A stretch of DNA of 64,000 nt from Eledone cirrhosa (Eukaryota): assembly GCA_964016885.1 (NCBI GenBank), contig OZ024744.1, positions 53,196,001 through 53,260,000 on the forward strand, in the 5' to 3' direction. Each line of letters opens with the position of its first letter. Position 1 is the first letter of the stretch. Shown piece after piece: positions 12,684-59,641 of this stretch. The position numbers and the translations under genes are program-made. The notes beneath the pieces are model-generated. The model did not search any database and was not told where the DNA came from. It saw only the letters and a program-made list of their open reading frames with translations.

Positions 12684-15600
12684 GGTTTCATTTATTGGCC
12701 AATGGGCCGACATAAAGGGGACGATACACTAGACAGGGACAGTGAGGGTTTAAATATACAACGTGTAAACAATATAAATAAAAAATAACAATAACAAAAT
12801 AACAATAAAAATACAACAAGAAAAATTCCCCAATAGGGGGGGATAACCACCCAGGGTTGATTCAGGTACTCCACCAATCCTGAACCACCCGACGGTTCGT
12901 GGGCACCCGGGAAGGGCACCCCCTTTTCTCCTGAAATTCACCAGCCTACGGGCGCATGATCAGAGAAGGCCTACACACACGGACCAGTCTCACCTCAGTC
13001 ACCCACCTTTCAGCAAATGTACTAGGGGGGGGGGCAGCACTTCTCTCTCCACCCTCACTTTCCTTTCCAAGTGAAACTTGAAAAAGTTGATGAGGGATTG
13101 GCCGAAGAGAAAAGCGTCTGTCTTCAGTCCTTTCAACCTCGTCCACCATACAACCTCTTTCGCAACTGCCACCAGACAGAGGAAAATTGCCTGCGCTACC
13201 TGGACAAAAAAAGGCGGCGTGTCGATCCTCACTATAGACTCGGCCGATAGCCGGATCCGTTCTATACGCGTCAACAGCTGTTCGACATAACTCCACAAGT
13301 CAATAATGCACGGACAATGGACGAGTGCGTGCAGAATCGTTTCGTCGTTCTGCGCGCATCTCGGGCATGTCCGCCTGACAGCACTTCCGTGCCTGTGGTG
13401 TTTATCTTGAACCGGCAGTGACACCGGTAGCATTGCCAAGCGAGGGATTTTTGGAAGTTATCCATCGTTGCCGGTTCGAAAGTCCTCCGGAACAGACTGG
13501 TTAGTTCGACTTCGTCGACGCCCCGAGCCTCTCCGAGTTCGACGTCGCACTGCCCACCACAAATCCTATATAGAACTCAACAGTGGAAGTTCCACTGAGT
13601 GCATTGCCTGCCTGGTAGAGGGCAGTGAGTGCCTGGCAACATTCCAGATGCCAGTCACCTAGTCCTGGTCTCTTCTTGTCCCAGGACTGCAGCTCAGTCA
13701 AAGAGACGTGCTGTGGACAGGCTCAATTGACAAACGGTGACCACACCTGTTCACCGTTTAGGCAGAATATCTGGAGATGCTGCAGCATCAGCACATGTTT
13801 GCGCATCATTAGCCAGGCATGCCCAGCGCTCTACGTAGAGGGTGTTGGAAGAAATGGACCGCCACACCAACGGAACCTGTCCCCTTCACATGAATTTGAA
13901 GAGGAGCCGTTCCAAGTTAGCGAGGCGTGGACGGGGGGCAAGGGATGACGGTCAGGTGGGAGTAGATGACAGACGCGATGTACGGGTTCGCCACCTCCGC
14001 CCGACCTTTCAGTGACAGTTTCCTCGCAGCCCATTTCTGTGTGAGACTGGCTACCCTGCCTGTTACCTCGTCCCAATTCTTATCCACCTGGAGGTCTGGC
14101 CCGAATCAAACCCCGAGCAACTTTACCGGTCCATCTGTCCAGCGCCCAACGACGCTATTGGACGGCATGGACTTGCCTCTCCAGGTGCCGAGTTGCAAGC
14201 CCACTGACTTTTCTGGGTTAAGTTTCGCTTCCGTCAACCTTTCATATTCCTCCAATAAGTTGTCGACCACCTCGATTTCCAAGGTGTCCGACAACATCAC
14301 GGTGATGTCGTCTGTATAAGCCGACACAGCCTTTCCGAGACCCGGTTCGAGCGGGATGCCCTTCCAGTTTCCTCAGTAAAGGCTCGAGAGTCAATACGTA
14401 CAGAAGGGAAGTGAGAAGGCACACTTGACGGACGGATCAGGAGAACTGAAACGGTTCCGAGAGATGGTCATTAACTTTGACCACCGAGCAGATACCGCTG
14501 TGCATTGCAGTGAACCAGCTTCTGAAGACGGACTGTCTTGAGGACAGACTCCAGGTACGGATGGTCGGCCCTATCAAATGCTTTCGACTTATCTAAATTG
14601 ATCAGAGCCCCACCGAAGCCAGGTTTACACCCTACCCTCTCTATGATGTATCGCATGAGGTGGAGGTTGTCGTGTATGTATCTGGTCGGGATTGCGCAAG
14701 TTTTCGCCTCCCCAACCAAATCCTCGACGACAAGCGCCAACCTCTTCGATAACACCTTGGTCAGAATCTTAAACTTTGTGTTGAGCAGAGTTAATAGATC
14801 TGAAATTATCTAATATGACCCTCTTGTTCTCGTCTTTCCTTATCAGCTTCACTACGCCCCGGCTCACAGAACTGGGAATACTCCCGTTCTGCTGCCGGTT
14901 GCAGTAGATTGCTTCTAGGAGATCGGAGAAAAAGTCTAGCATATTTATGTAAAGCTCGTAGTGCAGACCATCCAAACCGGGTGTTTTGCGCCTCATGCAG
15001 CTGACAAGGGCATCCTGAATCTCGGCTAAAGTTATCGGCGTTTCGCAGCACTCAGCGTCGGCCGTCGAGAGTTGCGGCTAGCCATCGAGGTAGGTACTGA
15101 TGTCCGCCACCGTCTCTGACCCGTCACTTCCACCGAAAAACCGACCAAAGCACTGGTGAAAGGCCTCACACACCGCCTGGGATCGTTCAGCACGTGTCCG
15201 TCTCGATCAGTTAAAGACCGAATTGTGGTTTTATTACCACACTGCGCCTCTGCCACACGGGTCCATCGAATAGCTTTGGTTCCCTCGTTTCTCAGAGTAC
15301 GCGCGTTAGCTCTGACAATGGAACATTCGCATTGAAAAAATGATCTTATGCCATTCGCGCCGCTAGCACGTCAGTTGCAATGCCACTACAAATAGCCTCG
15401 TCTAACTTATCTACCAACTCCCCCTCCTTTCTATTTATCTCTAACGCTAATTCTTTGCTAAACTCTATCGACATTACCCTAATCTCTCTTTTGAAAGCCC
15501 CACCGCACACCACCACCACCACCACCATATATTGTCGACGACTCCCCCTGTCAACTTTTTCTTAACTAAATTGTTGACCTGCTTCCTGTAAGCTTTACGT

Positions 15601-16517
15601 GCGGGAAATGACATGTTTAGCTTCCAGTAACCAGGTCCTAACCTACGCGTCTTATCTAGGTCGACCATACAGATCACAAGTTTGTGATCTGAATAGGCGA
15701 CCATATGTAATTGTGAACACCCTATACTATCCTTATCGACTAATCTAATTAGAACCTACCTAAGTACGATCTAGATGTCCCTAAACAATTTGTCCAGGTC
15801 CACACTGTACGCATTAGGGAAATCTAGTCGGTATCTGTCAGACAGTTGGAACTGGCTGATCAGATACTTGAGGGTTTTGCACCCCCCGCTCCTATCGGAT
15901 ACTCCAAACAATCCCAGGGCGCGTCTAAGATGCCGTTTCAGTCCCCCGCTAACAGTAAAGGGCGAGACGTACCCCAGAAAAGCTCGCTGTGTCTAAAGAA
16001 GTCCGGCCGTCCTTTCCTTCCCCGGTAGGGGCGTAGACGGCAGCAGACTAAAGGTACCACCTTCGCTAGTGTTAATTTCGTTGTTGTTTTTGTTGTCATC
16101 ATTTCTGTTGTCTGTCTTTTGGTTGTCGTTGTTACTGCTGTGGCTGGTATTATCGTGGGGGGGTTTGAAAGGTTATTGTTCTCACTATTGGTGTTGCTGC
16201 TGCAACTATGCAGTTTGAGGTGATGTTGCTAAATGTATTTGTAGTATAAATCAATGTGTTTGCCGCTCTCTCCTCTCAACGTTTAGGTCGCTGTCACACG
16301 AAAGAAGACATACATTTGGGGGCATGGCTCTGTCATGTTTGTTTTTTTCAAGAATTTTCAAATATTTTGGCCAAGAGGCCCAAATATTATACAGTCACAC
16401 ATTCACAGGGTGACAACCCTTTTCAAAGAATGCAACAGTTATTATAAATGAAAAGAAACAGAAAATTTACTTCAGTTTTGCGGAGCTCCAAAATCACGTC
16501 TTCACTGTCTGAAAGAC
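12684..16517 (-). mobile_element. Tx1-clade LINE E2, degenerate, lacking most of ORF1 and the start of ORF2
   Basis: ORF2 fragments 12946-~16075 (YTDD, CPRC...HALVHC, YSDHK) jump to Asn/Thr-rich ORF1 N-terminus (ATG 16336); 5' UTR abuts (AAT)n. Confidence 0.9.

Positions 16518-16559
<42 letters not shown>
16518..16559. repeat. (AAT)14 spacer between E2 and E3
   Basis: Perfect AAT tract directly joining two LINE copies. Confidence 0.95.
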
Positions 16560-16561
<2 letters not shown>

Positions 16562-18775
16562 TTTCATTTATTAGCCACAAGGGCCGACATGTAGGGGACA
16601 ATACAAAGACAGGGACAGTGGGGGTTTACAATAAGGTCGAGTAAAAGTGCACAATGGCAAGACTAATTTAACAATGAAAATATAAAAATATAAAATAAAC
16701 TATGCATAAATATAACAAAATAAATTCCCCAATAGGGGGTGGACGACCCTGGGGTGAATCGGGTACCCCACCAATCCTGAACCACACTGCGCTTCTTGGG
16801 CACCCAGGGAGGGCACCCCTCTCCTCAAGTTAGCTAGCCTATAGGCGCATGGTCAGAGTAGGCTCATTCACACGAGCCATTCTCGCCACATTCACCCACC
16901 TTTTAGAAAATGTACTGGGGGGGCAGCACTTCTCTCTCCACCCTCACCTTCCTTTCCAAGTGAAACTTGAAGATGTTGATGAGGGATTGGCCGAAGAGAA
17001 AAGTGTCTGTCTTTAGTCCTTTCACCCTGGTCCACCATATAATCTCTTTCGCAACTGCCACCAGACAGAGGAACATTTCCTGCTCTTCCTGACCTAAGTA
17101 AGGCGGTGGATCGATCTTCACTTTGGACTCGGCCGATAGCCGGATTCGTTCCACACGCGACAGTAGCTGTTCGACATAACTCCACAAGTTAGTAATGCAC
17201 GGACATTGGACAAGTGCGTGCAGAACGGTTTCGTCGTTCTGTGCGCATCTTGGGCAGGTCCGTCTGACAGCACTTCCGTGCCTGTAGAGTTTATCCCGAA
17301 CCGGTAGTGCCCCCCGGTAGCACTGCCAAGCGAGGGATTTCTGGAAATTGTCCATCGTCCCCAGCTCAAAAGTCCTCCGGTACAGACTGGTCAGTTCGAC
17401 TTCGTCGAGGCCCAAAGCTTCTCCGAGTGCTTCATCGCACTTGCCCACCACTAATCCTCTATAGAACTCGAGAGTGGAAGTTCCACTGATCGCATTGCCC
17501 GCTTGGTAGAGGGCAGTGAGTGCCTGGCAACATTCCAGGTGCCAGTCACCCAGTCAGGTCTCTTCTTGTCCCAGGACTTCAGCTCAGTCAAAAAAATGAG
17601 CTGCGGAAAGGCCCGTCTGATAAACGGCGACCACACCTGTTCACCGTTGAGGCAGAATATCTGGAGATGTCGCAGCCTCAACGCATGTCTGTGCATCATT
17701 AGCCACGGCATGCCCAGCCCTCCGCGTAGAGGGTGCTGGCAGCAGATGGACCGCCTCACCAACGGTACTTGTCCCTTCCACAAGAATTTGAAGAGGAGCC
17801 GTTCCAACTTGACGAGGCGCGGACGGGGGCAAGGCACGACGGTCAGGCGGTAGTAGATGACGGACGCGATGTACGCATTCGCCACCTCCGCGCGACCTTT
17901 CAGTGATAGCTTCCTCCCAGCCCATTTTTGGGTGAGACTGGCTACTCTGCTCGTTACCTCGTCCCAATTCTTTTCCACCTGGATGTCTGGTCCGAACCAA
18001 ACCCCGAGCAACTTTACCGGTCCGTCCGTCCAGCGCCCCACGACGCTGTTGGACGGCATGGCTTGCCTCTCCAGGTTCCGAGCTGCAAGCCCACCGACTT
18101 TTCCGGCTTAAGTTTGGCTCCTGTCAACCTTTCATATTCCTTCAATAAGGTGCCGACCACCTCGATTTCTGAGGTGTTCGACACCATCACGGTGATGTCG
18201 TCCGCATAAGCCGACACAGCATTTCCGCGTCCCGGTTCGAGCTATATACCCTGCAACAGCTCCAGCTTCCGCAGTAAAGGCTTGAGAGTCAATACGTACA
18301 GAAGGGACGAGAGAGGGCACCCTTGACAGACCGATCGGGAGAGCCGAAACGGTTCCGAGAGGTGGCCATTAACCCTGACCACCGAGCGTATGCCACTGTG
18401 CATTGCAACGATCCAGCTTCTAAAGACAGGGCCGAAGCCAGCTGCTTTGAGGACAAACTCCAGATACCGATGGTCGACCCTATCGAATGCTTTCGATTGA
18501 TCTAAATTGATCAGTGCCCCACCGAAGCCAGGTTTACACTCACCCTCTCTATGATGTATCGCATGAGGTGGAGACTGGCTGGGATTGCGCAAGTTTGCGC
18601 CTCCCCAACCAAATCCTCGACGACAAGCGCCAATCTCTTTGCTAACACCATTGGCCAAAATCTTAAACTCAGTGTTGAGCAGAGTTATGGGCCTGAAGTT
18701 GTCTAATGTATCCCTCTTGTTCTCGTCTTTCCTTATCAGCGTCACCACTCCCCTGCTCACAGAACTGGGAATACT
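16560..18775 (-). mobile_element. Tx1-clade LINE E3, 3' half (RT and C-terminus)
   Basis: NFRPITLLN, DQSKAFD, QGCPLS, YADD, CCHC in frameshifted ORFs; 3' UTR related to E2. Confidence 0.9.
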
Positions 18776-21700
18776 GGTTTCTTTATTGACCACAAGTGCT
18801 AATACTAAGAAAAACATTAGAGACGGCACAGAATAGTACAGGACGATATAAAGTGGGTTTTGGTGCTGTAAACAGGTTATAACACAATTGGGCTAGAAAT
18901 CAAAAAATTCAAACAGCAGAAATTCCCACAAAAGGGGGAAACCTCCGAGGGCTACTCGTGGCGAAAACAACACAAAAAAGCCACGGCCACCCTGACCACC
19001 AGGACAAGCGCCCCTCTCAGGTTTCCCACTCCTCAGTTTACAGGCGCATACTCAGAGCGGGCCCGTTCTCTCGGACCAGATTCGCCACTTTCACCCACCT
19101 TTCAACAAACTTACTAGAAGACAGCACTTGCCTCTCCACTCTGATTTTCCTCTTCAAGTGAAACTTGAAGAAGTTAATCAGAGGAAAGTGTACGTCTTCA
19201 ACCCTTTCAACCTTGTCCACCACACAATCTCTTTCGCCATGACTACCAGGAAGATGAAAACTGCCTCTCCTTCCTCCTCTTTTAAGGAGGATGCCGAGGC
19301 TATCTGCACAATGGACCCAGTCAATAACCGGATCCGTCCTACACGCAACAGCAGCTGTTCGACATAGCTCTACAAGTCAGCAATGCTCGGGCACTGAACG
19401 AGTTCGAGCAGGATGGTTTCGTCGCTCTGCACGCATTTCGGACAGGCTCGGCTGACGGCACTTCCGTGCCTGTAGAGCTTATCTCGAACCGGCAAGGCTC
19501 CCCAGTAGCACTTCCAGGCCAGGGATTTCTGCAAATTGTCCATAGGCCCCGGTCTGAGAATTCCCTTGAAGAGAGCGTACAGCTGATCGTCTTCGACGCC
19601 CAGGGTGTCTCCGAGAACGCCGCTCTTTCTCTCCACTAGCCCTCTATAGAACGCCGAAGTGGATGTTCCACCGATACTAGTGCCAAGCTGGTAGAGATAG
19701 GTGAGAGCTTGGAGACATTCCAGCTTCCAAGCGCTATCCCTTGGTCTTTTCCTGATCCAGGACTCGATCTACGTCAAGGCGACGAGCTGGGGAAAAGCGC
19801 GTCTGGCAAACGGCGACCACACCTGTTCACCGTCAAGGAAGCACCAGATATGTCACAGCCTCAGAGCATGTTTGCGCATCATCAGCCACGGCATGCCTAG
19901 TCCTCCACGCAACGGGTGTTGACAGCAAATGGATCTTCTGACCATGGGAGCACGTCCCTTCCACAAAAAGCGGAAGAGAAGGCGCTCCATTTTGGTCAGA
20001 GCTGGGCGGGGGCACGGTACGACTGTCAGGTGGTAGCAGATGACGGACGCTATGTACGCATCTGCCACCACTGCCGACCTTTCAGAGATAGCCCCCTCTC
20101 AGCCCATTTCTGGGTGAGACATGTCACCTCGCTCCAGTTTTTCTCCATCTGGAGGCCCAACTCAGCCAGACCGAGCAATTTAACTGGTCCTTCGGTCCAG
20201 CGCCCCACGACGCTGTCGGAAGGCATGGACTTGCCTCTCCAGGTTGCTGAGTTGCAAGCCCACCGACTTTTCCAGGTTTATCTTTGCTTCTGTCACCGCT
20301 TCGTATACCTTGAGAGCGGCGCCGAGCATCTGGACGTGTTTGGTGTTCCACACCACCACGGTGACGTCATCGGCGTAAGCCGACACGGATCTCCCGCATC
20401 CGATTTCGCGTGGGACACTCCTCCTCGTCTCCAATTTGTGCAGTAACGGCTAAGGGCCAGTACGTACGAGAGGGACGAGCGGGGGCAATCCTGGCGGACC
20501 GAGCATGATGTTGAAAGCCTGCGACAGGTGATCATTCACCTTCATAATCGGGCAGATGTCGTTGTGCATCGCAGCGATCCAGCGCCTGAAAACGGGCCCG
20601 AAGCCGGCCGCCTTGAGACCGCAGCCAGGTACCGATGGTCGATCATATCAAAAGCTTTAGATTGATCCAAGTTGATTAGGGCCCCACCCGTGCCAGGTTC
20701 CTTAACCACCCTCTCTATGGTGTATCGCATGAGATGTGGTTGTCGTGGATGGATCTGTCCGGAATGGCGCATAACTACGCCTCTCCCACCAGATTACCGA
20801 CGACAAGCACCAATCTCTCTGCTAACACCCTGGCCTAAATCTTAAACTCTGCGTTTAGCAGAGTTATTGACCTGCAGTTGTCTATAACATCCCCCTTTTT
20901 CAGGTATTTTCTCATCAGCGCCACCGCTACGCGTCTCACAATACTGGAAATGCTCCTGTTTTGCTGCCAGTAGCAGTAGACATCTGCCAAAGGTTGCCGA
21001 ACTAGTCTGGCATATACGCATATAGCTCGTAGAGCAGACCATCCAAACCTGGCGATTTGCCCCTCGTGCAGTCAGTCATCGCTTCCCGTATTTCACCTGC
21101 TGTTATCGGCTTTTCGCAGCACTGCGATGCGGTCGTCGAGAGCCGCGGCAGTCCATACCCCGATCCAACCCGCCGCCGCTCCCGAACGATTGAGTAAAGT
21201 GCTGTTGAAAGCCGTACACATCTGCTCGGGTTCGAGCAACATGCGCCCGTTTTGATCAGGCAAAGACCGAATTGTGGACCTTGTTGCCACGTCGTGCCTC
21301 CACCACCCGGGTTCATTGAACGGATTTCGTTCCCTCGTGTCTTAGAGCATGCGTTCTAGCTCTGACAACGCAGCCTTCATGCTTTGCGTTGAAGAATTGG
21401 TCGAGTGCCAATCTCGCCGCAAGCACGTCACTTGCGATGCCTGTCCTAAACGCCTCTTCTAGCTTTCTAACTAACTCTCCCTCTACTCTATTTTCCTCTA
21501 TCACTGCTCCTTTGCTAAACCTTATCGATTCTACTCTAATAGCCCTTTACAGGCTAAACCACCACCTGTTGTTGACGATCGCACCCGTCAACGCACGCTT
21601 AACTAATTCGCTAATCAGGTCTCTCTAAGCTTTGCGCGCCGGGAAAGACGCGTTCAGTTCCAGCAGCCGGGCTCTTGCCTATGGAGTCTATCTAAGACAA

Positions 21701-23924
21701 CTTCACAGATCACAAATTTGTGGTCCGTGTAGTCGACGACTTTAAATTGTGGACAACCTACACTAGCCTTATCTGTTTCCCTACAGAATACCCTATCTAA
21801 ATACGATCTGGATGACCCGATGCGGTTTGCCCTTGTGCACATTGGCACATTCGGATAATCCAGTCTATACCTGTCAGAGAGTTCAAAACGTCTGAGCATG
21901 TTTTTAAGGATTTTACACCCTCCTGCCCTTTCTACTAGACCCACATAATACCAGCGTGCTTCCAAAAAGGTCTCTAGACGTCTGAAGAAATCTGGCCGTC
22001 CTGCCCCTGTTGGTTCGTAGACGCTACTAGACTAAAAGCATTGCCTTCGCTGCCAGTCACGTCCAGCACCAACGACGTACCTTCTGGATCCAGGAAGATG
22101 GCCCGTATGGCGAGATCCAAGCCTCTCCGAAGAAGCACGGCAACTCCCCCCCCCCCCCCCCCGATTATGGACGGCTGGGAGTTGCGTATACATCGTAGCC
22201 GCCGAAGATCGGTCCGAAGGCTCGTGCTTCGGAGATTCTGGTTTCGCTGATGGCCACCTCATCTATGTTTAGTGACCTGAGGTCGTTGAGCAGGTGACCC
22301 TGCTTCCAAGATGACTCCGGGCCACGTACATTTATAGTGCCTATTCTAAATACGGCCATGCTGGATGAGAAACGGAGTAAGTGAAAAAGGATCACTTACC
22401 TTGATCGTGTGGTGAAGGGACAGTAGAACCGTCCCTTTCGCTGGTCATGGGTGTTTCCAAGAGGATGTTGGTGTATATCCTCTTGGTAACCGACCCTCTG
22501 AAGTATCCAACTGCGTTGGGGAATTTTTGTTTTAAAGGTTTGTACTGTTCTATTGAGATTTCGATGATGCTTATGTTTGTCGGGAGAGTTCTTGGTGTTG
22601 GTGGGGTGTAGTAGTTTGTTTCTGTGATGTCAGTGTATATCCTCTTGGTAACCCACCCTTTGAAGTCTCCAACTGCGTTGGGGAATTTTTTTTTTAAAGT
22701 TTGTAATGTTCTATTTTGATTTCAATGATGTCTATGTTTGTCGGGAGAGTTCTTGGTTTTTGTGGGGTGTATTAGTTTGTTTCGGTGATGTCTGTGTGCT
22801 GCTTTATATGTTGTAAGAGTTCTTTATTTGCCATGTTTATGGCTGTGTACGTTTTGGGGGAGGGGTGATTTTGTTGCTGTTTTCTTGTTGCTGTTGGGCG
22901 AGTGAGTTTTGTTGTGTTTGCGATGTTGGTGTTTTTGGTGATGGTAGTGGTGGTGTGGTTGTTGTTGGTGGTGATGCTTGTGGTAGTGATGGTGACGGTG
23001 GTGGTGTTGCTGCAAGTCTTCTTGCAGCCTTTACCCCTCTTTGTCTGCCTTCACTTTTGGAGGGTGAAGCTAAGGGGTTTTTCCTTTTTTGTTTTTTTGT
23101 TGCAGACCGTTTGCCACTTCCCTCCTGCCTTATACTCCATGTCAGATTCTGTGGCGTCCGGGAGGGGTATGAACTCCACTGCTGTTGGTGGTGGTAGTGG
23201 CGCCCGCTCCGGCGATTTTACCGCTGGTGTAGCTACTGAGACTGTTGGTGTTGCCGCCACTGCTGCCACTGCTTTAGTTGTCCGTGGTCTTGGTATGGGT
23301 GCCACGGACGTTGCCCTCCTACTCACCATGGAGGGTTCTTCTGCCTTTGTTGCCTGACCTGCTCCTGGTATCAGCGATCAGGCTTCGGACTGAGGGGGGT
23401 CCCCTCTTCTTGGCTGTCTTCTTCGGGCAGAAGGCCCTGAGGTGACCCTTCTGCCCACAGAGATACCACTTTGGGCGCCTTCCTTCCACGCTTATAGGAA
23501 GTTAGAGCCCTTCTTCGAGATCTATGATGTCTGGGATGGCCTTGATGCACTCCTGGTCAGTCTGTATTAGCATTTGCATGCCTTTTCCTGACCAGTTCTC
23601 TCTTCACATTCTCTGTAGTTGCAGTATGGTGGGTTCTCCTCGATTCCAGCCAGTGAAGACACGACCAGCCAACGTATAGGCACGTAGGGCGGGACCAGGG
23701 TCACTTCGACCCTCACAATTTTCTCCCCACAGTAGGAGGGCACCAAGACTATCTCCTCACTCTTTAGGGTTTCCAAAGTGTGTGACTTCGCCTCTTGTGG
23801 GGTGGCGAAAAGTACGTCTAAAGTGGCGTTCTTTTTGCCTCGGGTAATGTGGTTTGTGCGCGCCCAGACGCACCCCAAGGCCTTTTGGATTAGAGCCTTT
23901 GTGGCTCTCTCCACCCGATGTGAT
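18776..23924 (-). mobile_element. Tx1-clade LINE E4, nested in E3, 5' truncated within ORF1
   Basis: 3' end AATAAAGAAACC abuts E3 at 18775; degenerate ORF2 from ATG 22359; ORF1 remnants to ~23920. Confidence 0.9.
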
Positions 23925-23926
23925 AT

Positions 23927-26664: not shown

Positions 26665-26849
26665 CTAGCTACAGCCTATTCAACAGAATACAGTGGCCTC
26701 AACACCATCACTATAGTACCACTATCCCATCCCCCCCGCTACCACTCCATCATTGCTACCACCATTATTCCCCCACTACCTTCTATTAACTTAAGACAGG
26801 GGAAGGTGGGGTTGACAATAGATAAGGGAGAGGCTAACAAAAGCTATAA

Positions 26850-29800: not shown

Positions 29801-30606
29801 CTCTGGACTGAAATCGGAGACTGAAGGACTGATTATATCGGCACAAGATCAGTGTCTGCCAACAAAAAATTACCAAGCCAACATAATAAAAAATGGGTGC
29901 AGCCCATTATGCCGTGTATGCAAAAAACAACCAGAGACCATTGACCATATAATTTCAATGTGCAGTCCTATAGCTCCAACCGAATACCAAATGAGGCATG
30001 ACAGAGCTGCACAATACATACATTGGATAATGTGTAAGCATTTTGACCTGCCCCATCAAAAGAATTGGTGGGAACATCAACCACCTCCCATACTTGAAAA
30101 AGATCACATCTCAATCTTGTAGTACTTTAGCATCCAAACAGACCGAAAAATAGATGCAAATAGACCTGATAAAATACTGAAGGAATTTAAAAGAGGGTAT
30201 GCCTGCTAATTGATATGTCTGTTCTAATAGACAAGAATGTATCTATAAACACATTTGAAAAATTGAGCAAGTATAAGGACCTGGAGATAGAAATTAGAAA
30301 AATGTGGAAATTGAGAACTAAAACAATACCAGTGGTTGTAGGTGCTCTGGGAATGATACCTAAGGGGTCTAATGACTACTTATCGCAAATCCCAGGAAAC
30401 CCGCGTATAGGAGAAATACAAAAGATAGTACTAATGGGAACTGCCCATATACTAAGGAAGATTCTGTCACAAGTCTAAACACTAAAGATGCATGTGTGAA
30501 TATGTATGTTCTTTCTTGAACATGGCGGACCTTGTTGTCTCTTGAGGTCACTGGTTGTGACTTGGTGATAACTCGTATGAACATAAAGCAAGATAAATGG
30601 AACTGT
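26850..30606 (+). mobile_element. R4/Dong-like non-LTR retrotransposon (RT plus restriction-like endonuclease), degenerate
   Basis: WIDYKKAFDS, FQGDSLSPLLF, YMAD (mutated YMDD), CRVC...DHIISMC knuckle, RHD, RPD...KLSKYKDL...PVVVGALG; ends in (TAA)n; 5' boundary approximate. Confidence 0.85.
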
Positions 30607-30624: not shown

Positions 30625-30727
30625 TGTATCTACTTTTGGCACAAGGCCAGCAATTACCCAGTGCATTACTGGTACTTTATTTTATCGACCCCGTAAGGAT
30701 GAAAGGCAAAGTCAACCTCGGCGGGAT
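30625..30727 (-). mobile_element. Truncated SINE (same family as 12464-12672)
   Basis: cccagtgcattactggtactttattttatcgaccccgtaaggatgaaaggcaaagtcaacctcggcgggat, flanked by AAT tracts on both sides. Confidence 0.75.
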
Positions 30728-33258: not shown

Positions 33259-33260
<2 letters not shown>

Positions 33261-39317: not shown

Positions 39318-39567
39318 GATTTCTTTATTAACCACAAGGGTTTACATAAAGTAGACATTAAGGACAGTGCAGGACAATGCAGGACGGTACAAATGGGCAT
39401 TTCTGCGTGTAAAAAACAAAAACAGAGGATGTAACAAAAAATAACAATGAAAAATTCCCCAATAGGGGGGAGACTTCGGAGGGACATTTGTGGAGAAAGC
39501 CCAGTAAAAAGCCACAATGACCCTGACCACCAAGGCAAGTGCCCTCTCCCAGTTTTCCACCTTTAGT

Positions 39568-42987: not shown

Positions 42988-43022
42988 GTTTAAAATAGAG
43001 TGGAAAAGATGGGAAAGACCAC

Positions 43023-45119: not shown

Positions 45120-45332
45120 GTTTTTTTGTTTAAAATGAAATTTTGGGTACAAAACCCCAATAACTGGTTATTTAACCCCGAAGGGCCAAATAACGGACAG
45201 AAAGACCCCTCTCACGAGGAGGAGGGTGTCTTTATCAACAATTTGGTTCAAGTTTTAAACAATTTACAATTGTTTTAACGGTTAAAAATTACTATACCTT
45301 ACAGAGCCGAGCCTCCGTCAACCATGGCATTC

Positions 45333-45363
45333 AATAATAATAATAATAATAATAATTAATAAT
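45333..45363. repeat. (AAT)8T(AAT)2 spacer
   Basis: Identical to 39287-39317. Confidence 0.95.
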
Positions 45364-48140: not shown

Positions 48141-48158
48141 AACAATAATAATAATAAT

Positions 48159-51100
48159 GCTTTCTTTATTAACCACAAGGGTTTACATAAAGTAGACATT
48201 AAGGACAGTACAGGACAATACAGGACGGTACAAATGGGCATTTCTGCGTGTAAAAAAAACAAAGGAAGTAATAAAAAATAACAATGAAAAATTCCCCAAT
48301 AGCGGGAAGACTTCCGAGGGACATTTGTGGAGAAAGCCCATTAAAAGGCCACAGTGACCCTGACCACCAGGGCAAGTGCCCTCACCCAGTTTTCCACCTT
48401 TAATTTACAGACACATACTCAGAGTAGGCCCATTCATTCGGGCCATACTTGCTTCTCTCACCCATCTTTCAACAAAATGCTGGGAAGAGAGCACTTCCCT
48501 CTCTACCCTGATTTTCCTTTTGAAATGAAATTTGAAAAAGTTAATCAGGGCATCACCGAAGAGGTAAGTGCTCGTCTTCAGCCCTTTCAAACGTGTCCAC
48601 CATACTATCTCTTTCGCCATGGCCACCAGACAGATAAAAACTGCCTGCCCTTCACGGCTTAGGAAGAGGGCGGGGAAATCCTTACGATGGACTCAGCTGA
48701 TAGCCGGATCTGTCCCACACGTGACAGCAGGTGTTCGACATAAACCCACAAGTCAGCAATGCTCGGAAACTGGACGAATACGTGCAGGACGGTTTCGTCA
48801 CTCTGCGTGCATCTCGGACATGCCCGGCTGATGGCAACTCCATGCCTGTAGAGTTTATCCCGAACTGGCAAAGCTCCTCGGTAGCACTGCCAGGCCAGGG
48901 ATTTTTAGAAATTGTCCATAGGCCTCGGCCCGAAAGTCCTTCCGAAGAGATTGGCTAGTTGATTTTCGTCGACGCCTAGAGTTTCTCCAAGTACGTCGTC
49001 GCTTTCCCCTCCACTAATCCTCTATAGAACGCCAAGGTGGAGTTTCCACAGATCACATTGCCCGATTGGTCGAGGGCTGTGAGCGCCTGAAGACATTCCA
49101 GTCTCCAAGCGCTCCCTCTCGGTCTTCGCTTGACCCAGGACTGCAGCTCCGTCATTGAGACGAGCTGGGGAAAGACGTGTCTAGCAAACGGCGACCACAC
49201 CTGATCACCGTCGAGGAAGAGGTGGAGATGTCGTAGCCTGAGCGCGTGTCTGCGCATCATCAGCCACGGCATGCCCAGCCCTCCAGGTAGCGGGTGTTGA
49301 CAGCAGATGGACCGCCTGACCATCGGAGCGCGTCACTTCCACAAAAAGCGAAAGAGCAAACGCTCCAGCGCAGTCAGGCGAGGCTTAGGACAATGTACGA
49401 CGGTCAGGCGGTAGTAGATGACGGACGCGATTTACGCGTTGGCCACCTCCGCCCGACCTTTAAGGGATAGCTTCCTCTCCGCCCATTTCTGGGTGAGAGA
49501 AGCCACCCTGCTCGTCACCTCGTCACAGTTTTTGTCCGTCCGGAGGTCCGGACCGAACCAGGCCCCTAGCAATTTAACCGGTCTGTCCGCCCAGCGCCCA
49601 ACGACGCTGTTGGACGGCATGGACCTGCCTCTCCAGGTGCCGAGCTGCAGGCCCACTGACTTTTCCTGGTTGATCACTGCTCCTGTCACCGCTTCGTATT
49701 CTTTTAGTGTAGTGCCAATCGCCTCTATGTGTTTGGCGTTCGATACAACTACGGTGACATCGTCCGCATATGCTAACACAGATCTTCCACATTCTGGTTC
49801 GCGCGGGACCCCCCTCAACGTCTCCAGTTTGTGCAGTAATGGCTCGAGAGTCAATACGTACAAGAGGGACGAGAGGGGACATCCTTGGTGGACCGAGCGC
49901 ATGATGTTGAACGGTTCCGAAAGGTGACCCTTCACTCTGACAACACAGCAGATGTCGCTGTGCATGGCAGTGATCCAGCCTCTGAAGACGGGCCCAAAGC
50001 CAGCCGCCCTCAGGACTGCCGCTAGGTAACGATGGTCGAACATATCGAAAGCTTTCGACTGATCTAAATTGATCAAGGACCCACCCGTGCCAGGTTCCCT
50101 AGCTACCCTCTCTACGATGTATCACATGAGGTGGAGGTTGTCGTGGATGGATCTGTCGGGAATGGCGCACGTCTGCGCTTCTCCCACCGGACCACCAACG
50201 ACAAGCGCCAACCTCTTTGCTAGAACCTTGGCCAAAATCTTGAACTCTGTGTTTAGCAGCGTTATGGGCTTGAAATTATCTATGTTATCCCCCTTGTTTG
50301 GATCCTTTCTCAGCAGCACCACAGCTCCTCGGCTCACAGAGCTAGGAATTCTCCCGTTCTGTTGCCAGTTGCAGTAGACGTCCGCCAAGAGGCCTCCGAA
50401 CAAGTCTGGCATCTGTACGTAAAATTCATAGGGCAGAACATCTAAATAGGCGATTTAACCCTTGTGCAGCCAGTGATTGCCTCCCGTACTTTAGCGGCTG
50501 TTATCGGCTTTTCGCAACACTCCGCCTCAGTGGCCGAGAGCCGTGGCAGTCCGTCGAGGTAGACACTAAAGTCCATCCCAAGATCCGGCCCACCGCTACT
50601 CCGAACAGCTGTGCGAAGTGTCGTTGAAAAGCTTCACATATTTGCCCGGGATCGAGTAGCATGCGCCCGTCGTGGTCCACCAAAGACCAGATCGTGGCTT
50701 TGTTGCCACGACGCGCCTCCGCCACTCGGGCCCATTAAACGGCTTTCGTCCCCTCGTGTCTGAGAGCACGCACCATAGTTCTGACAACGCAACCTTCGTG
50801 CTTTGCATTGAAGAATTGGTCTAGGGCCAATTTCGCCGCAAGCACGTCGGTCGCGCTCCCTTAACTAAGCGCCTCCTCTAATTTTCTAACTAATTCTCCC
50901 TCTGCTCTATTTTTCTCTATTGCTAAAGCCTTACTAAACCTAATGGACTCTATTCTAATTGCTCTTTTCAGAGCAAACCACCACTTGTTGTTGACGATGG
51001 CTCCAGTCAACGCCCGCTTAACTAGTTCGCTAATCCGGTCTCTGTAGGCTTTGCGCGCTGGTAAGGACGCGTTTAGCTTCCAGTAGCCGGGTCCTCGTCT

Positions 51101-54008
51101 ATGAAGCCTATCTAAGTCAAGCACACAGATCACGAATGTGTGGTCCGTGTAGCTGACTATCTTGAATAATGGACAGCGTATGCTAGACCTATCTATTTCC
51201 CTACAAAATACTCTATCTAGATATGATCTAGATGACCCTATGCTATTTGTCCAAGTCCACATTGGCACATTCTGGAAATCCAATCGGTACCTGTCAGACA
51301 GTTCAAAACGCCTGAGCAGGTTGGTGAGGCTCTTGCACCCTCCTCCCCTATCAACTATTCTCACACAGTCCCAGCGTGCATCTAAGATCCCGTTCCAGTC
51401 GCCCACTAACACTAAAGAGCGGGACGTTCCCAGAAAGGTCGCCACACCCCGGAAGAAATCAGGCCGCCCTGCTCCTGTCGGGGCATAGACGGCCACTAGC
51501 CTGAAAGCTTGCCCATCTCCGCTGGTCACGTCCAGCACCACCAACTTACCTTCTGGGTCCAGGAAGATGGCCCGTATGGCGAGATCCAAACCTCTCCGAA
51601 AAAGCACAGCAACTCCTCCCCCGATCCCGGACGGCTGGGGGATGCGTACACATCGTAGCCGCCGAAGATCGATGCGAAGGCGCGTGCTTCGGAGTTTCTG
51701 GTCTCGCTGATGGCCACTACATCTACGTTTAGTGACCTGAGGTTGTTGAGCGGGTGGCTCTGCTTCCATGACGACCCCAAGCCATGCGCATTTATGCTGC
51801 CTATTCTGAGTGAGGTCATGTTGAAATGGAGTGGAAAAGATGGGAAAGACCACTTACGTTACTTTTCGTAGAGGAAGGATGGTTTGTCCATCCTTTTCAC
51901 TGCTTGTGACCTCCTCCAGAAGGATGTCCTTATAAATCCTCCTGGAGAGTGTTTGTCGGAAGTCTCCGATGTCTTTGGGGAATTTTTGTTTTAGTGTCGT
52001 GTACTTTTTCTGTGTGATGCGAGTGATTTGTATGTGTGGAAGTCGTGTGAACTTTTGGGTTGTTGTGTAATCTTTTTCTGTGATGCTGGTGTTGTGTTGC
52101 ATGTAGTGTAATAATTGGTTGTTGTTCAAATTTAATGCTGTGTATCGTTTCGGTTGTTTTGTTTTGTTTGCGTTTGTTGTGGGTTTGTTTCTGTTTCGCT
52201 TTTTGGTGACTTTTGTGGTGTTGGTGATGGTAGTGTTTGGGTTAATGATGGTGATGGTGTTGGTGTTTGTGGTGATAGGGTTTGTGATGCTGGTGTGGAT
52301 GGTGGCATATCTGTCCTAACATTTTTGTTTGATAGTTTATTTGTTTCATTCTGTATTTTTTTTTGGAGGGGGAGGGAAGAGAACTTTTTCTTTTTTGGTT
52401 TCTTTTTTTCTTTTTTCCTGATACCGTTTCCCACTCCTGGTCGTCACAATCTGTCTCCAGTTGTGATAGGCCGGGGAGTTCAAAATTCTCGACAGGCGTT
52501 GGTTTTTGTTGTGGCGTGGTGGATGGTGTAGGTGCTGTTGCTAGTTCTGACGCGTTGGGTGGTGGTGGTGTTGATTTTGCTACTGTTGCTGGGGTTGTTG
52601 CTGTTACAGTTGCTTCTGTTGTTGCTGCCATCTCTGCTGCTGGTGGTGTTGATGGTTGAGTCACTGGGGTGGGTAAGAGAGGTGGCCTCAACCTTTTAAC
52701 CTGAGGGCAGAAAGCCCTTAGGTGGGTTCCTTCACCACAAACGACACACCTAGGCCTTCTGCCCTCGACAATTACGGTGAAGTGGCTGTCGTCAGTGAGG
52801 TCTATTACCTCTGGGATCTCTTCAATGCTTTTTTGGTCCGCTTGGATCAGGAGCTCCATCCCAAATCCGGACCAGTTCTCCTGCTTTTCTTTCGCTATTT
52901 CGATTATCTTTGTGTTGGCTTCGATTCCGGCGAGGACGGCCGCTATCATCCCGGGAATTTCGATGGCCGGTGGAACGTGGGTGACCCTGATCTTTACGAG
53001 TCTCTGGCCACAATATATTGGGACGAGTGTGAAGTCGTCACTTCTTAATGGGGCCATGGAGTGTTCTCTAGCCTCCTGTGGTGTTTCAAAGAACACGTCC
53101 ACGGTTCCATATTTCTGCCCACGTCTGATGTGGGTTTTTTTGGCCCACACATGTCCCAAAGCTTTTTGGATTTGGGACTCGGATGGCCGTTCCACTCGCG
53201 CGATTTTATATTAATTGTTCGATAAGACACGGTGCATAGGCGCCGATGCTCCATTTTATTAGGTGGCGCGGGGGTGGGGCTGAACCTGTACCCATCTTTC
53301 TTTACCATTTTTTTGGCTTCTTCTGATTCCTCCTGAATTACCTGAAAAGCTTCGCACTGTTTTGCTACTCTGGCAAAACTCAGGGTGGTTTTCTTAATTT
53401 CATTGTTGCCGTTGTTGTTATCGTTATTTTTTTTATTATTCTTTTTAGTTTCAGTTGTGGTGGTGGTGGCGTCAGTGGTGTTCGGTGTGGAAGAGTTCAT
53501 TTTGGTTGAATTCATTTCGATATCACGAGTTACTTTATTTTTTTATTTTGTTTCTGTTGTTGCGGTGGTGGTAGGGTGGTGGTTGTCGCGGTGGTGGTGG
53601 TGGTGGTGGCGGCTTTGACACCTGCAGTCATTGGTAATGGCGGGAAATGAATATCTGCCTGAGACAAATTTAAAATATTGCTACTGCTTATATTTTTAGT
53701 GTTGGCAAACGTAGTAATATTTACAATGGTTGTGTCGGTGTGAGGTGTTAGTTTGTGATGAAGGCTGTCAGCTTCGTGTGGCTGTGAGTCGTCCATGTTT
53801 TTTCAAATAAAGTTTTTTTTTTATAATTACAAATTTTAAATTTTGGGCTCAAGGCCCCGATCTTTTTGAGTGTCCTTTTCGGAAAACAATGGATGTGCAC
53901 TTATGTACAGTTAACAATAAAAATATTCCATTAATGGCAATTTTAAACAAACGAAAACAACAAACCTTTGCGGAGTTCACGATGATACGATTTACTACGT
54001 GAGTCGCC
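48159..54008 (-). mobile_element. Full-length degenerate Tx1-clade LINE E10
   Basis: ORF2 (ATG 51819 to 48405) and 3' UTR close to E7; ORF1 (ATG 53796 to 51854) divergent, CVVCGEGTHLRAFC; AAT tracts at 48144-48158 and 54009-54041. Confidence 0.9.
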
Positions 54009-54041: not shown

Positions 54042-57000
54042 TGTTTCTTTAATGCCCACAAGGGATGACACGAAGAAAAACATTAGAGACGGCACAGAAC
54101 AGTACAGGACGATACACATTGGGTGTTGGTCGTGTAAACAGGTTATAACAAAATCAGGCTAGAAATCCAAAAAAATTCAAACAACAAAAATTCCCCAAGA
54201 AGGGGAAACCTCCGAGGGTCACTCGTGGCGAAAAACCACACAAAATACCACAGCCACCCTGACCACCAGGGCAAGTGCCCTCTCTCACTTTTCCCACTCC
54301 TCAGTCTACAGGCGTATACTGAGAGTTCACTCTGACCAGATTCGCCACTTACTCCCACCTTTCAATAAACTTCCTTAATGACAGCACTTGCCTCTCCACC
54401 CTGATTTTCCTCTTCAAGTGAAACTTGAAAAAGTTCATCAGGAATTGGCTAGAGAGGGAAGTGTCCGTCTTTAACCCTTTCAACCTTGTCCACCACACAA
54501 TCTCTTTCACCATGGCCACCAGGCAGATGAAAACTACCTGCCCTTCCTCCTCTTTAAAGGAGGATGCCGGGGCTATCAGCACAATGGACTCAGTCGGACT
54601 AACCGGATCCGTCCTATACGCAACAGCAGCTGTTCAATATAGTGCAGGACGGTTTCGTCACTCTGCGCGCATCTAGGACAGGCTCTGCTGAGATCATCTC
54701 CGAGCCTGTAGAGCTTATCCTAAACCGGCAACGGACCCCGGTAAAACTGCCAGGCCAGGGGTTTCTGGAAGTTGTCCATAGGCCCCGGTCTGAAAGTTCT
54801 CTTGAAGAGAGCGAACAGCTGATCGTCTTCGACACTCAGGCTCTCCCCGAGAACGTCGTCGCTCTAGCCCTCTATAGAACGCCGATGTTGATGTTCCACC
54901 GATACTAGTACGCAGCTAGTAGGTGGCGGTGCCGCTTGGAGACATTCCAGCTTGCAAGCGCTAACCCTCGGTCTTTTCCTGATCCAGGACTGCAGCTCTG
55001 TCAAGGAGACGAGCTGGGGAAAAGCGCACCTGGCAAACGGCGACCACGCCTGTTCACCGTCAAGGAAGCACCAGAGATGTCGCAGCCTCAGCGCATGTTT
55101 GCACATCATCAGCCACGGCATACCTAGTCCTCCACGCAAATGAATCGTCTGACCATGGGAGCACGTCCCTTTCCACAAAAAGCGGAAGAGGAGGCGTTCC
55201 ATTTTGGTCAGAGTTGGGCGGGGGCAAGGTACGACGGTGAACCAGTAACAGATGACGGACGCTATCTACGCATTCGCTACCTCTGCCCGACCTTTCAGAG
55301 ACAGCCTCCTCTCGGCCTATTTCTGAGTGAGAGGGGCCACCCTGCTCGTCACCTCACTCCAGCTTTTCTCCATCTGGAGGTCCGGACCGAACCAGACCCA
55401 AGCAATTTAACCGGTCCTTCCGTCCAGTGCCCCACGACGCTGGCGGACGACATGGACCTGCCTCTCCAGTTTCCGAGCTGCAAGCCCACCGACTTTTCCT
55501 GGTTTATCTTTGCTCCTGTCACCGCTTCGTATTCCTTGAGAGCGGTGCCAAGCATCTGGACGTGTTTGGTGCTCGACACCACCACAGTGACGTCGTCGGC
55601 GTAAGCTGACACGGATATCCTGCATCCCAGTTCGCGTAGGATTCCCCTCATGGTCTCCAATTTGTGCAGTAATGGCTCGAGGGCCAATACGTACTAAAGG
55701 GACGAGAAGGGACAGCCCTGGTGGACTGAGCGCATGATGCTGAACAGCTACGACAGGTGACCATTCACCCTCACAATCGAGCAGATGTCGCTATGCATCG
55801 CAGCGATCCAGCCCCTAAAACGGGCCAGGAACCGTCTGCTTCGCGGACCGCAGCTAGGTCCTAATGGTCGACCCTATCAAATGCTTTAGATTGATCCAAA
55901 TTGATCAGGGCCCCACCCGTGCCAGGTTCCTTAACCACCCTCTCTATCATGTATCGCATGAGATGAGGTTGTCGTCGATGTATCTGTCCGGAACGGCGCA
56001 TGTCTGCATCTTTCCCACCAGATCACCGAATTCAAGCGCTAATCTCTTTGCTAACACCTTGGCCAAAATGCTGAACTCTGCATATAGCAGAGTTTTGGGG
56101 CTGAAGTTGTCTATAATGTCCCCCTTGATCGGTTCTTTTCTCAGCAGCGCCACCGGTCACCGGCTCACAAACCTGGGAATGCACTCGTTCTGCTGCCAGA
56201 TGCAGTAGACCTCTGCCAAGAGGTCACCGAACAAGTGGGGCATGTACGCAAGAAGCTCATAGGGCAGACCATCCAAACCTGGCGATTTACCACTCGTGCA
56301 GTCAGAGATCGCTTCCCATATTTCACTGGCTGTTATCGGCTTTTCGCAGTACTGCACAGCGGTCGTCGAGAGCCGGGACAGTCCGTCTAGGTATGCACCG
56401 AAGTCCATACTCCGATCCGGCCCGCCGCTCCCGAACAATTGAGCAAAGTGCTGTTGAAAAGTCGCACACAACTGCTCGGGTTCGAGCAACATGAGCCCGT
56501 TTTGATCAGGCAAAGACCGAATTGTGGATTTGTTGCCACGTCGGGCCTCCTCTGTGACTAACACTGTCTCGATATTTCGGGCGACACCTGCAAAAGAAGT
56601 GGTCCCTTTTTCAGCAGCACCACGTCGGGCCCCCACTACCCGGGCCCATTGAACGACATTCGTCCTCTTATGTCTCAGAGCACGCACTGTAGCTCTGATA
56701 ACGCAGCCTATGCGTTGAATCTCGCTGCAAGCAGGTCAGTTGCGATAACTGTCCTAAACTTCTATCTTTCTAACTAGTTCTCCCTCTACTCTATTTTCCT
56801 CTATCCATACTCCTTTGCTAAACCTTATCGATTCTACTCTAATAGCCCTTTTCAGGGTAAACGCCCACCGGTTGTTGATGATCGCACCCGTCAGACAGTT
56901 CAAAACGTCTAAGCAGGCTGTTGAGGCTTTTACACCATCCTCCTCTGTCTAATAACCCAACATATTCCCAGCGTGCATCCAAGATACTGTTCCAGTCGCC

Positions 57001-59641
57001 CACTAAAGTGCGGGACGTTCCAAGAAAGGTCTCTAGACGTCTGATGAAATCTGACCGTCCTGTCCCTGTCGGGGCGTAGACGGCTACTAGCCCGAAATCA
57101 TTGCCTTCGCTGCCGGTCACGTCCAGCACCACCGACTCACCTTCTGGATCCAGGAAGATGGCCCGTATGGCGAGATCCAAGCCTCTCCGAAAAAGCACAG
57201 CAACTCCTCCCCCCGAACCCGCACGACTGGGAGATGCATAAACATCATAGCCACCGAAGATCGGTACGAAGGCTCGTGCTACGGAGATTCTGGTCTCGCT
57301 GATGGCCACCACATCTATGTTTAGTGACCATAGATCGTTCGGCAGGTGACCCTGCTTCCAAGATGAACCCATGCCACGTACATTTATACTGCCTATTCTA
57401 TGTACAGCCACGTTGGATGAAGAAACGGGGGTAAGTGAGAAAGGATCACTTACCTTGATCGTGTGGGGAACGGACAGTAGAACCGTCCCTTTGGCTGGTC
57501 ATGGGTGTCTCCAAGATGATATCTGTATAGATTCTCTTGGAGAGTGACCCTCTGAAATCCCCAACCACGTTGGGAAATTTTTGCTTTAATTGTCTAGTCT
57601 TCCAGTTTAACTTCGACAATTGTTTTGGGGCAATGTTCTTGGTGTTGGTGGGGTGTGGTAATTTAAGTCTGTAATGTCTGTGTGTTGCTTTATATGTTCC
57701 ATTAATCCTTTGTGGATCTGTACTTTTTTTTTGGGGGGGGGGGGATTTGTTGCTGTTTTCTTGTTGTTGCTGTTGGGTGCATGTGCTTCGTTGTGTTTGC
57801 GATGTTGGTGTTTTTTGTGATGCAGCCTTTACCCTTCTTTCTTTGCCTTCGCTTTTGGAGGGAGAAGCTGTGTTTTGCGTTTGTTTTTTTGTTGACAACC
57901 GTTTTCCACTCCTCGGCCGCCTCATACTCCATGTCCGACTGTGAGGGGTCGGAGAGGGGTATGAGTTCTACCCTCTCATTTGTCTTTATAGTTGTTGTTG
58001 GTGGTGGTGGTGGAGCCTGGTCTGCCGTTCTTGGCACATGTGCAGCTAGGGCAACTGATTTTGTTGATGCAGCTGCCGCCGCTGATTTTGTTGTCCGTGG
58101 CTTCGGTGTGGCTGCCACGGATACTGTAGAAGCTCCCAACTTTTTCGCTGACTGCTCTGTTTCTGATGGCAGTGGGCGTTGGAAGGAGGGGGACCTTCGC
58201 CTTTGTTATTTTATGTGGGCAGAAGGCCCTAAGGCGAGACTTCGCTACACAGTTGAAGCACTTTGAGCGCCATCCTTCCTAAGATATGGGAGTTGTGAGC
58301 CATTCCCGAGGTCTATTACATCGGGAATAACGCTGATGCAGTCTTGGTCCGTTTGGATGAGCATCTCCATTCCAATTCCGGACTAGACTTCTCTCCCTAA
58401 ATTCTGTACCAGCAGAATGGTTGTTCTATCCTCGATGCCCGCAAGAACAGACACGACCAGCCAACGCACGGTTACGTAGGGCGGAACCTGGGTTACCCCG
58501 ACCTTTGCAATTTTTTTCCCACAGTAAAACGGGACTAATGTTATGTCATCACTTTGTAAGGTCCGCAGTGAGTGCGTTTTTGCTTCCTGGGTGGTAGCAA
58601 AAAGGATGTCCACGGTAGCATATTTCTTGCCTAGGATGATGTGGGTTTTCCGTGCCCACACAGTTCCCAAGGCCTTCTGGATTTGGGCCTCCGAGGCTCT
58701 CTCCACACGACGCGATTTCGTGGCAATCGTGCGGTATGACACTGTGCGTCGCTCTTGTTCCTCCAGGAAGTCGGTTGGTACTTTCAAGGAGACTGAAAAT
58801 TCAGTTCTGGTTACCATGTGTCTTGCGACCGCCATCTCCTCCTCTGCGACCAGGACTGTTTCTACGTTGCGAGCCACCTTTGCAAAAGAGATGGTCCCTT
58901 TTTCAGTGGCATCACTGTTGCCACCGCTACTGCTGCTGGTACTGGTCTTGTTGTGGTGATGTTGTTGTTGCTACTGCTACAAACGGTGTTGTTGGTGTTG
59001 CTGTTGTTGCTGCTGCTACTGCTACCACATGTGTTATTGTTAATACTGTCACTGCTGCGGCTGCTGCTGCTACTGCTACCACATGGTGTTGTTGGTGTTG
59101 TTGCTGTTACCACTGTTGCAGTTGTGTCTTTGGTGCCGCCATTGTTGTTGTTCTAGGTGCAATTTGTATTGTTGCTGTTGGTTTTGTCGCATTTATGTTG
59201 TTGCATTTATTGTCATTTTTTTGATGTCTGCATTTTCGTTGTCGCTGTTACTGTTGCGGTTGGAGTGGTTATTTTTTTCAAAATTAGTGTTCTCAGTGTT
59301 GTTGTCATTGCTGTCTTTGTTCATGTTGTTTGTGGTGGTGTTTGTTGTATCAATTTCTATGTTCGCCGTAACCCACCTCTCAACTTGTACGGCGTTGTCA
59401 CATGACAGGAGACATGACGCTGGGGGGACGTGGCTCAGCCATGTTTTTTTTTCCGATAATTTTTAAATGTAAAAATTTCAAATAATTGGGCCAAAAGCCC
59501 AAATACTATACTTTCCCCTCCACAGGACAAAGTCCAAGGGCTTATATCCCTTACACAACGACACAAATTTAACAATAAATAATTTATGTCAGGTAAATAA
59601 AGAGACTTACGAGAGTGAGCAAAAAGACGTCCGATCAGGCC
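54042..59641 (-). mobile_element. Full-length degenerate Tx1-clade LINE E11
   Basis: ORF1 ATG 59442, ending SPHDQGK*; ORF2 from 57411 with frameshifts and deletions; 3' UTR like E4; 5' end abuts (AAT)3(AAG)n. Confidence 0.9.

Follow-up and report, generated by a model that had tools for sequence, protein, structure and literature searches.

A Tx1-like LINE family that sits after (ATT)n tracts, and tandem arrays whose chimeric copies may have been completed from resident neighbours

Introduction

The Tx1 clade of long interspersed nuclear elements (LINEs) includes families that insert into microsatellites: (TC)n is the target of Kibi, (TTC)n that of Koshi, and (TTCC/TTTC)n that of crocodilian families (PMC4494074, PMC3812793). 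Here we describe a Tx1-like family found as an array in a 64,000-nt stretch of a 3.0-Gb assembly of Eledone cirrhosa (G000:C28:53196001-53260000; hereafter the window, with 1-based positions within it), where nine minus-strand copies, labelled E2-E4 and E6-E11, are spread across 12684-59641. Like the families above, it is a LINE with an apurinic/apyrimidinic endonuclease (APE), a reverse transcriptase (RT) and two open reading frames (ORFs) that enters a short tandem repeat; it differs from them in its likely octopod host, in its (ATT)n target, which the available text of those reports does not list for Tx1, and in forming chimeras that copy a neighbour's flank, which are not described there. 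Microsatellite targeting and self-seeding arrays are known behaviours. New here are the ATT target, the sharing of tracts with Dong-like elements on the opposite strand, the link to a short interspersed nuclear element (SINE) and, above all, the frequency of 5′ ends that appear to be copied from a neighbour.

Dong belongs to the R4 clade, whose elements have a single RT ORF with a C-terminal zinc knuckle and a restriction-like nuclease, and no APE. The family described here has the same microsatellite as Dong, and a Dong-like element lies inside the array, yet it occupies the opposite strand and has an APE nuclease. In the text available, TAA targeting is listed only for Dong (PMC3812793), and recently active L1-Tx1 and Dong-R4 families are counted in Octopus vulgaris with no target given (PMC13282606). 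Tandem R1 arrays in Drosophila ribosomal DNA have been traced to insertions that hit the duplicated target where a resident copy begins (PMC2718515); the likeness is that new copies enter at resident 5′ ends and that the arrays seed themselves, but where R1, according to the accessible account, shows a fixed 14-bp duplication in 28S, we find variable spacers, duplicated flanks of up to 885 nt and shared 5′ parts. Templated insertions and chimeric elements of L1 have been explained by strand invasion, the cDNA being proposed to leave its RNA and copy nearby DNA (bioRxiv 10.1101/2024.08.27.596794). There too the proposed switch to nearby DNA duplicates a segment; the cases in the available part of that report are 22 in tumours, mostly below 250 bp, whereas kilobases are concerned here, in about half of the sampled tandem pairs. 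As for SINEs, SINEU has been attributed to Tx1-Mar, and tandem SINEU-3 copies surround a duplicated target (PMC4494074). The SINE described below resembles it in its probable assignment to Tx1 machinery and in tandem insertions around a duplicated target; in the available text the link for SINEU is the shared target, and here it is a shared 3′ hairpin together with an ATTAT site. Our literature search returned, in the accessible text of the papers (including PMC3747384, PMC4824008, PMC4758252 and PMC9004415), neither an ATT-targeting Tx1 nor a Tx1 partner for an octopus SINE, nor a chimeric array of this sort; Repbase, which may list an ATT-targeting Tx1, lay outside that search.

Targeting of ATT tracts

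The young Tx1-like family sits almost exclusively after (ATT)n on one strand. Young 5′ ends were taken as exact matches to the first 21 bases of E7 (n=1687 genome-wide), and 1627 of them (96.4%) stand directly after (ATT)4, in phase. The original prediction had proposed a strand-specific ATT target and had named random 5′ flanks at solo copies as the contrary outcome; such randomness was not found. All 30 copies sampled by their 5′ end have 18-42 nt of perfect, in-phase ATT upstream. Among 26 copies sampled by their 3′ end, which were the best scoring and hence biased to young copies with long tails, 24 are full-length with at least 18 nt of in-phase ATT, one is truncated with ATT and one is unresolved. 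Older 5′ ends were scored on an 18-nt ATT window in which 15/18 or better counted as a pass: 18/20 of the E9 type and 16/20 of the E11 type pass, each set including the window's own copy, against a background of 0/59,964 flank positions. Because two older subfamilies also follow ATT, the repeat is a target and not only a tail. Targets of the Kibi or Koshi type, (TC)n or (TTC)n, were not found in the flanks, which are (ATT)n; CTT occurs as a neighbouring tract and at the junction of one truncated copy.

At least 44,770 ATT tracts of six or more units are present in the genome, about one per 70 kb. Occupied tracts are often older than the copy, being tails of older subfamilies or SINEs, or parts of compound microsatellites. 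Since young copies occupy older subfamilies' tails and compound microsatellites, the predicted self-seeding is real; what seeding from tails did not foresee is that arrays also appear to grow upstream by copying residents. ATT/AAT microsatellites in such genomes should be viewed with caution as transposon hot spots.

Dong-like elements use the same tracts as the Tx1-like family, on the opposite strand. Across the tract from 54 young copies, all 34 recognised Tx1 or SINE neighbours are in the same sense and all 37 Dong-like neighbours are antisense (108 sides, 36 of them unassigned and one without data; the Dong-like sample is drawn from Tx1 flanks). One such element, about 4 kb long and on the plus strand, lies within the array at 26651-30606 and had been overlooked in the original prediction. 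It matches RVT_1, gives no APE match in the four frames scanned and carries (TAA)n on its own strand as an (AAT)6 tail; from its C-terminal motifs and this tail we provisionally take it to be R4/Dong-like. Elsewhere, Dong-like elements occur in head-to-tail runs of their own (L294, L296).

Chimeric tandem pairs

Arrays like that of the window are common in the genome, since 24 of the 99 gaps between successive 5′ ends on contig C1 measure 10 kb or less (23 on the same strand), against 0.8 expected. Adjacent copies were examined in five multi-copy arrays and in all nine remaining pairs spaced 6.0-7.0 kb among the first 100 5′ ends (C1, unselected). In five of the nine unselected pairs, the neighbour's 5′ part and/or the flank upstream of it recur at the upstream copy, whose 3′ part is different; the signature is an interrupted or non-ATT flank present twice (34, 59 and 868 nt) and/or 5′ parts that are almost identical and then give way to many differences. 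The first difference comes improbably late (P<0.01) in 6/17 adjacent full-length pairs, as compared with 0/191 dispersed pairs and 10/1998 cross-locus comparisons. Sharing in these six is confined to the 5′ side, and the closest relative of the 3′ part is found at another locus.

Individual arrays display the same pattern over long distances. On C1, an 885-nt flank is duplicated without a difference between two copies that diverge from base 26. All four spacers of the C2 array repeat host flank; four of its five copies differ by 0-3 bases, and the third copy differs at 14 sites, 13 of which have alleles seen at other loci. Within the window, an identical interrupted 31-nt tract stands on both sides of E8. 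E8 and E7 have four pair-private variants (among 60 copies) within the first 3.9 kb, and seven of their nine substitutions fall beyond this point, where E8 is nearest to a copy on C1 (P=0.013).

Truncated copies

The young 3′ end has 6087 exact matches genome-wide. The 5′ junctions of the first 65 by position were read by eye, four being set aside (three internal deletions with the 5′ end unseen, and L130, which was unclear): 29 have a full-type 5′ end, in every case after ATT, and 32 are truncated. Several long truncated copies abut the interior of another element, which suggests deletions at the 5′ joints of long truncated copies. Three short Tx1 copies have 11-17-nt duplications starting with ATTA and lie in non-repeat sequence. 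Locus L024 yielded no junction and was dropped from the analysis.

Two further joints are of note. A lone 25-nt Tx1 3′ end in a SINE tail (L200) has a 17-nt duplication, little beyond the hairpin having been copied, and the 5′ joint of another truncated copy (L174) meets CTAACCCTAACCCT, telomere-like repeats.

A probable partner SINE and the 3′ hairpin

The head motif of the SINE that accompanies the family has 32,305 matches genome-wide, partly in satellite-like runs; in the copy at 12464..12674 the head is presumably A/B-box-like. The SINE 3′ end carries the loop CTTGT (CUUGU in RNA) at the same distance from the tail as in all Tx1 groups examined, and the hairpin stems have changed on both sides between subfamilies and the SINE (C-G to G-C, G-C to A-T). 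Of 30 SINE loci, 21 copies were scored, nine having no nearby 3′ end by the pattern used; 20/21 continue with ATTAT, and 14/21 have 9-19-nt duplications. Judging from these sequence features, the SINE likely borrows the Tx1 machinery, and the Tx1-like family is a candidate driver of this very abundant element. The SINE head also makes up a satellite with a 45-bp period that spans tens of kb in two regions of contig C1 (G000:C1, ~10.316-10.357 Mb and 1.982 Mb; L274-L277).

Proposed mechanism and alternatives

To account for what was directly observed (flanking ATT, the strand rule, flank duplications, and pairs with shared 5′ and different 3′ parts), we propose with moderate confidence an ATT-guided, target-primed insertion that is often finished by a template switch onto a resident neighbour. 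Nicking by the APE nuclease would take place opposite ATTAT. The RNA would be held by its 3′ CUUGU hairpin, and its (AUU)n tail would base-pair with the tract, where priming would start. With a stagger of some 15 nt, ATT would remain on either side, so that each insertion would yield two reusable tracts. Given a resident copy immediately downstream, the cDNA would leave the RNA for the resident's DNA and copy the resident's 5′ part along with all the sequence from there back to the nick. Dong-like elements, on the other strand, and the SINE also add tracts. The wider proposition is more tentative and falls somewhat short of an even chance: insertion beside old copies would routinely be completed by neighbour copying, with upstream growth of arrays, rescue of truncated cDNAs to full length and recombination at insertion, and two unrelated nucleases (APE and restriction-like) together with the SINE would feed one microsatellite from opposite strands. 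Neighbour copying could also explain why so many copies are full-length (29 of the 65 position-ordered 3′ ends). The joining of LINE 5′ ends and the start of the second strand are a long-standing open step, and more than 1600 young full-length copies with one exact 5′ junction, along with mappable switch points, make 5′ joining testable.

Several observations weigh against this account. An ATT flank is kept by only 13 of the 32 truncated copies, in 12/19 of those of 500 nt or less and in 1/13 of longer ones (P=0.003; background 7/2000); the low figure for long copies would require deletions at their 5′ junctions. (AAT)n precedes one truncated copy and one older 5′ end, ACT or CTT repeats precede two truncated copies, and some older full-length copies have a 3-nt tail, unlike the product of a fixed 15-nt duplication. 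The folding energy of the hairpin is unremarkable (z -0.2 to -1.6). Of the scored SINE copies only 1/21 has four or more ATT units, long tracts being mostly avoided, and the nuclease alone therefore does not explain targeting; as the SINE needs only ATTAT, the nuclease motif may be short and the choice of long tracts may rest on RNA-DNA pairing. We infer one machinery with a short ATTAT site, for which long tracts are chosen by such pairing. Regarding the chimeras, the E8/E7 pair taken alone is modest evidence (P=0.013, with 0.51 in the first-difference test), and four of the nine unselected pairs are without copying, as is one extra link beside one of them.

Ordinary, unrecombined pairs of this kind would suit a later origin of the chimeras, in which ATT targeting holds and a normal insertion upstream of a resident is followed by crossover with the resident on a homologue lacking the insertion. 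Crossover gives the same product (full upstream flank, resident 5′ part, newcomer 3′ part), and in one pair the flank copies differ in repeat number, 13 versus 8 units, as two alleles would. We nevertheless regard it as unlikely: where an 885-nt flank is duplicated and no more than 25 nt of the element is shared, the exchange would have to fall in a tiny window; duplicated segments hardly differ (two pairs have 0 differences in ~3 kb); and every switch point read by eye falls in the first 3.9 kb of the 6 kb, although late ones are difficult to detect. Unequal exchange within the array was rejected because most chimeric copies (not E8) have host DNA upstream and hence no upstream donor of the 3′ part. 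An assembler that switches between empty and filled haplotypes inside the shared element would yield the same structure as well, but errors of this sort are quite improbable here, the switches being between copies up to 4-5% apart (247 differences at one pair) with little exact overlap for a false join, and copies and spacer lengths remaining distinct within arrays. As assembled, the array is real, and it is typical of this genome.

The flanking ATT might, instead of belonging to the target, arrive with the RNA: read in from the source's flank, it would anneal at the target, and the nuclease would need only ATTAT, which is compatible with the template-switch mechanism favoured above and also with its alternatives. 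This would suit the gradient from full-length copies (96%) through the short and long truncated ones to the SINE, as well as a fixed junction phase and an ATT run that is never below 18 nt in 54 young copies. A precedent exists in R2, for which upstream 28S sequence has been proposed to anneal in this way and RNA with upstream target sequence gives uniform junctions, as the available text has it (PMC3774820). RNA-borne ATT still strikes us as somewhat unlikely. Tracts often pre-date the copy (older subfamily tails, SINE tails, CTT on both sides), short truncated copies without the RNA 5′ end are still in ATT far above background, and the 5′ ends carry no Rfam ribozyme, the Rfam search for a ribozyme or RNA-gene head having returned a single miRNA match at chance level, located outside the array. 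Simple tandem duplication of one copy, with ATT as a mere slippage tail, can point to the 99.6% identity and identical spacers of E7/E8 and to the four near-identical copies of the C2 array. We consider it ruled out by the 1627/1687 ATT-flanked 5′ ends and by the third C2 copy; the four subfamilies of the window and the dispersed solo copies with 5′ ATT also speak against it.

Coding content and classification

ORF2 of E7 contains PF03372 (APE), PF00078 (RT) and PF13966 (zf-RVT), in keeping with the Tx1 layout of an N-terminal APE endonuclease, an RT and a C-terminal zinc finger, an architecture shared with L1, and its endonuclease (EN) aligns to L1 EN structures. In the Tx1 clade, ORF1 has an RNA-binding domain and a CCHC knuckle. 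ORF1 of E7 presents a CFRC..H....C motif and has look-alikes with zf-CCHC at 0.90-0.93, taken as a lead only. A first protein search and cluster look-up gave no informative names, and those given to ORF2 in the Atlas were generic. Against a TX1-named alligator protein the RT reaches 232 bits (41%), as compared with 115 bits against human L1; over the same region the closest named protein comes from Argonauta hians (73%), pointing to a likely octopod host. In an RT tree built without reference elements (no L1, Kibi, Koshi or Keno), E7 joins vertebrate Tx1-like rows at 92/88, below the tool's star. Membership of the young family in the Tx1 clade is likely. At five loci (L203, L204, L169, L172, L175) an E10-type 5′ untranslated region (UTR) and ORF1 and an E7-type 5′ part share one ORF2 and 3′ end, that is, front modules have been exchanged between subfamilies.

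A putative target-recognition loop in the endonuclease had been described as conserved across subfamilies. The motif is legible in E2, the 5′ half of E3, E4 (degraded), E7, E8 and E10; it is deleted in E11, E6 and E9, and is therefore seen in three of the four groups only. The loop aligns with the hairpin that was swapped in the L1/Tx1L chimera structure 2v0r, and its role here is putative. The region is variable among relatives at 40% identity, and flexibility of the loop has been argued, in the text available, to matter more than its sequence (PMC1950540).

Organisation of the array

As the original prediction had it, nine co-oriented copies fill the 47 kb, and Tx1-like DNA makes up about 91% of the span 12684-59641 (Table 1). 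Its four 3′ subfamily groups are supported by pairwise identities of 84% (E2/E3), 82% (E4/E11), 90% (E6/E9, 3′ end), 94% (E7/E10) and 99.6% (E7/E8). The youngest copies were expected at the centre, and the two intact ones, E7 and E8, with both ORF frames open, are indeed central. An (ATT)n tail had been ascribed to every copy; (AAT)n runs are present at the positions given for them, but E4, nested in E3, has no such tail. The accompanying claim that most 5′ ends directly abut the previous tail holds for five of the nine tracts listed, which run from tail to Tx1 head (16518, 39287, 45333, 48144, 54009). Two others lead to SINEs (12675, 30728), one to a 41-nt antisense Dong-like 3′ piece (33211), and that at 59642 is a host (CTT)(ATT) microsatellite.

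Table 1. Features of the array and its surroundings (window positions)
Feature	Position	Strand	Remarks
Degraded Tx1-like 3′ part	10768..12443	+	opposite orientation, tail-to-tail with SINE tail; left of array
SINE	12464..12674	-	(ATT)3 tail 12455-12463; entered from E2 tail 12675-12683
E2, Tx1-like copy	12684..16517	-	5′ end adjoins E3 tail; ORF1 mostly deleted, ORF2 frameshifted
E3 tail, (ATT)14	16518..16559	-	
E3, 3′ half of element split by E4	16560..18775	-	
E4, 5′-truncated, nested in E3	18776..23926	-	no ATT tail
E4 113-nt duplication	18663-18775 / 23927-24039		91% identity, begins AGTATT
E3, 5′ half	23927..26650	-	EN to RT start, ORF1 remnant; interrupted by antisense element
R4/Dong-like LINE, ~4 kb	26651..30606	+	frameshifted, antisense to Tx1 copies; RVT_1 E 5.5e-16
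(AAT)6 tail of R4/Dong-like LINE	30607-30624		shared tail-to-tail with SINE
5′-truncated SINE	30625..30727	-	CTTGT hairpin and ATT tail
E6, 5′-truncated copy	30749..33169	-	tail (ATT)7 at 30728-30748
41-nt 3′ end, second Dong-like family	33170..33210	+	between E6 5′ break and E7 tail
E7, full-length, 6028 nt	33259..39286	-	tail (ATT)16 at 33211-33258
E7 ORF1 open frame	36977-39121	-	CCHC knuckle
E7 ORF2 open frame	33522-37136	-	APE, RT, zf-RVT
Interrupted ATT spacer, 31 nt	39287..39317	-	identical to 45333-45363
E8, full-length	39318..45332	-	first 3.9 kb as in E7, pair-private variants among them; 3′ part closest to a copy from a different locus
E9 tail, identical to the interrupted 31-nt E7/E8 spacer	45333..45363	-	
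E9	45364..48143	-	full-type 5′ end; ORF2 mostly deleted
E10, near full-length, frameshifted	48159..54008	-	tail (ATT)5 at 48144-48158
E11	54042..59641	-	full-type 5′ end, internal deletions; tail (ATT)11 at 54009-54041
Host compound (CTT)n(ATT)3 microsatellite	59642..59674	-	upstream of array

Some minor features of the window may be added. The plus-strand Tx1 copy left of the array has an inverted piece of its own 3′ coding region upstream, at 10123-10245, as from twin priming. E4 contains a 161-bp tandem duplication at the ORF1/ORF2 boundary (22464-22797). A GTAAG motif occurs about 30-35 nt inside several subfamily 5′ ends (39250, 59610 and related ends) and is possibly a splice donor or promoter element. 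Finally, a (TA)n-rich repeat, likely similar to miniature inverted-repeat transposable elements, occurs several times within 3500-8600, in both inverted and direct orientation.

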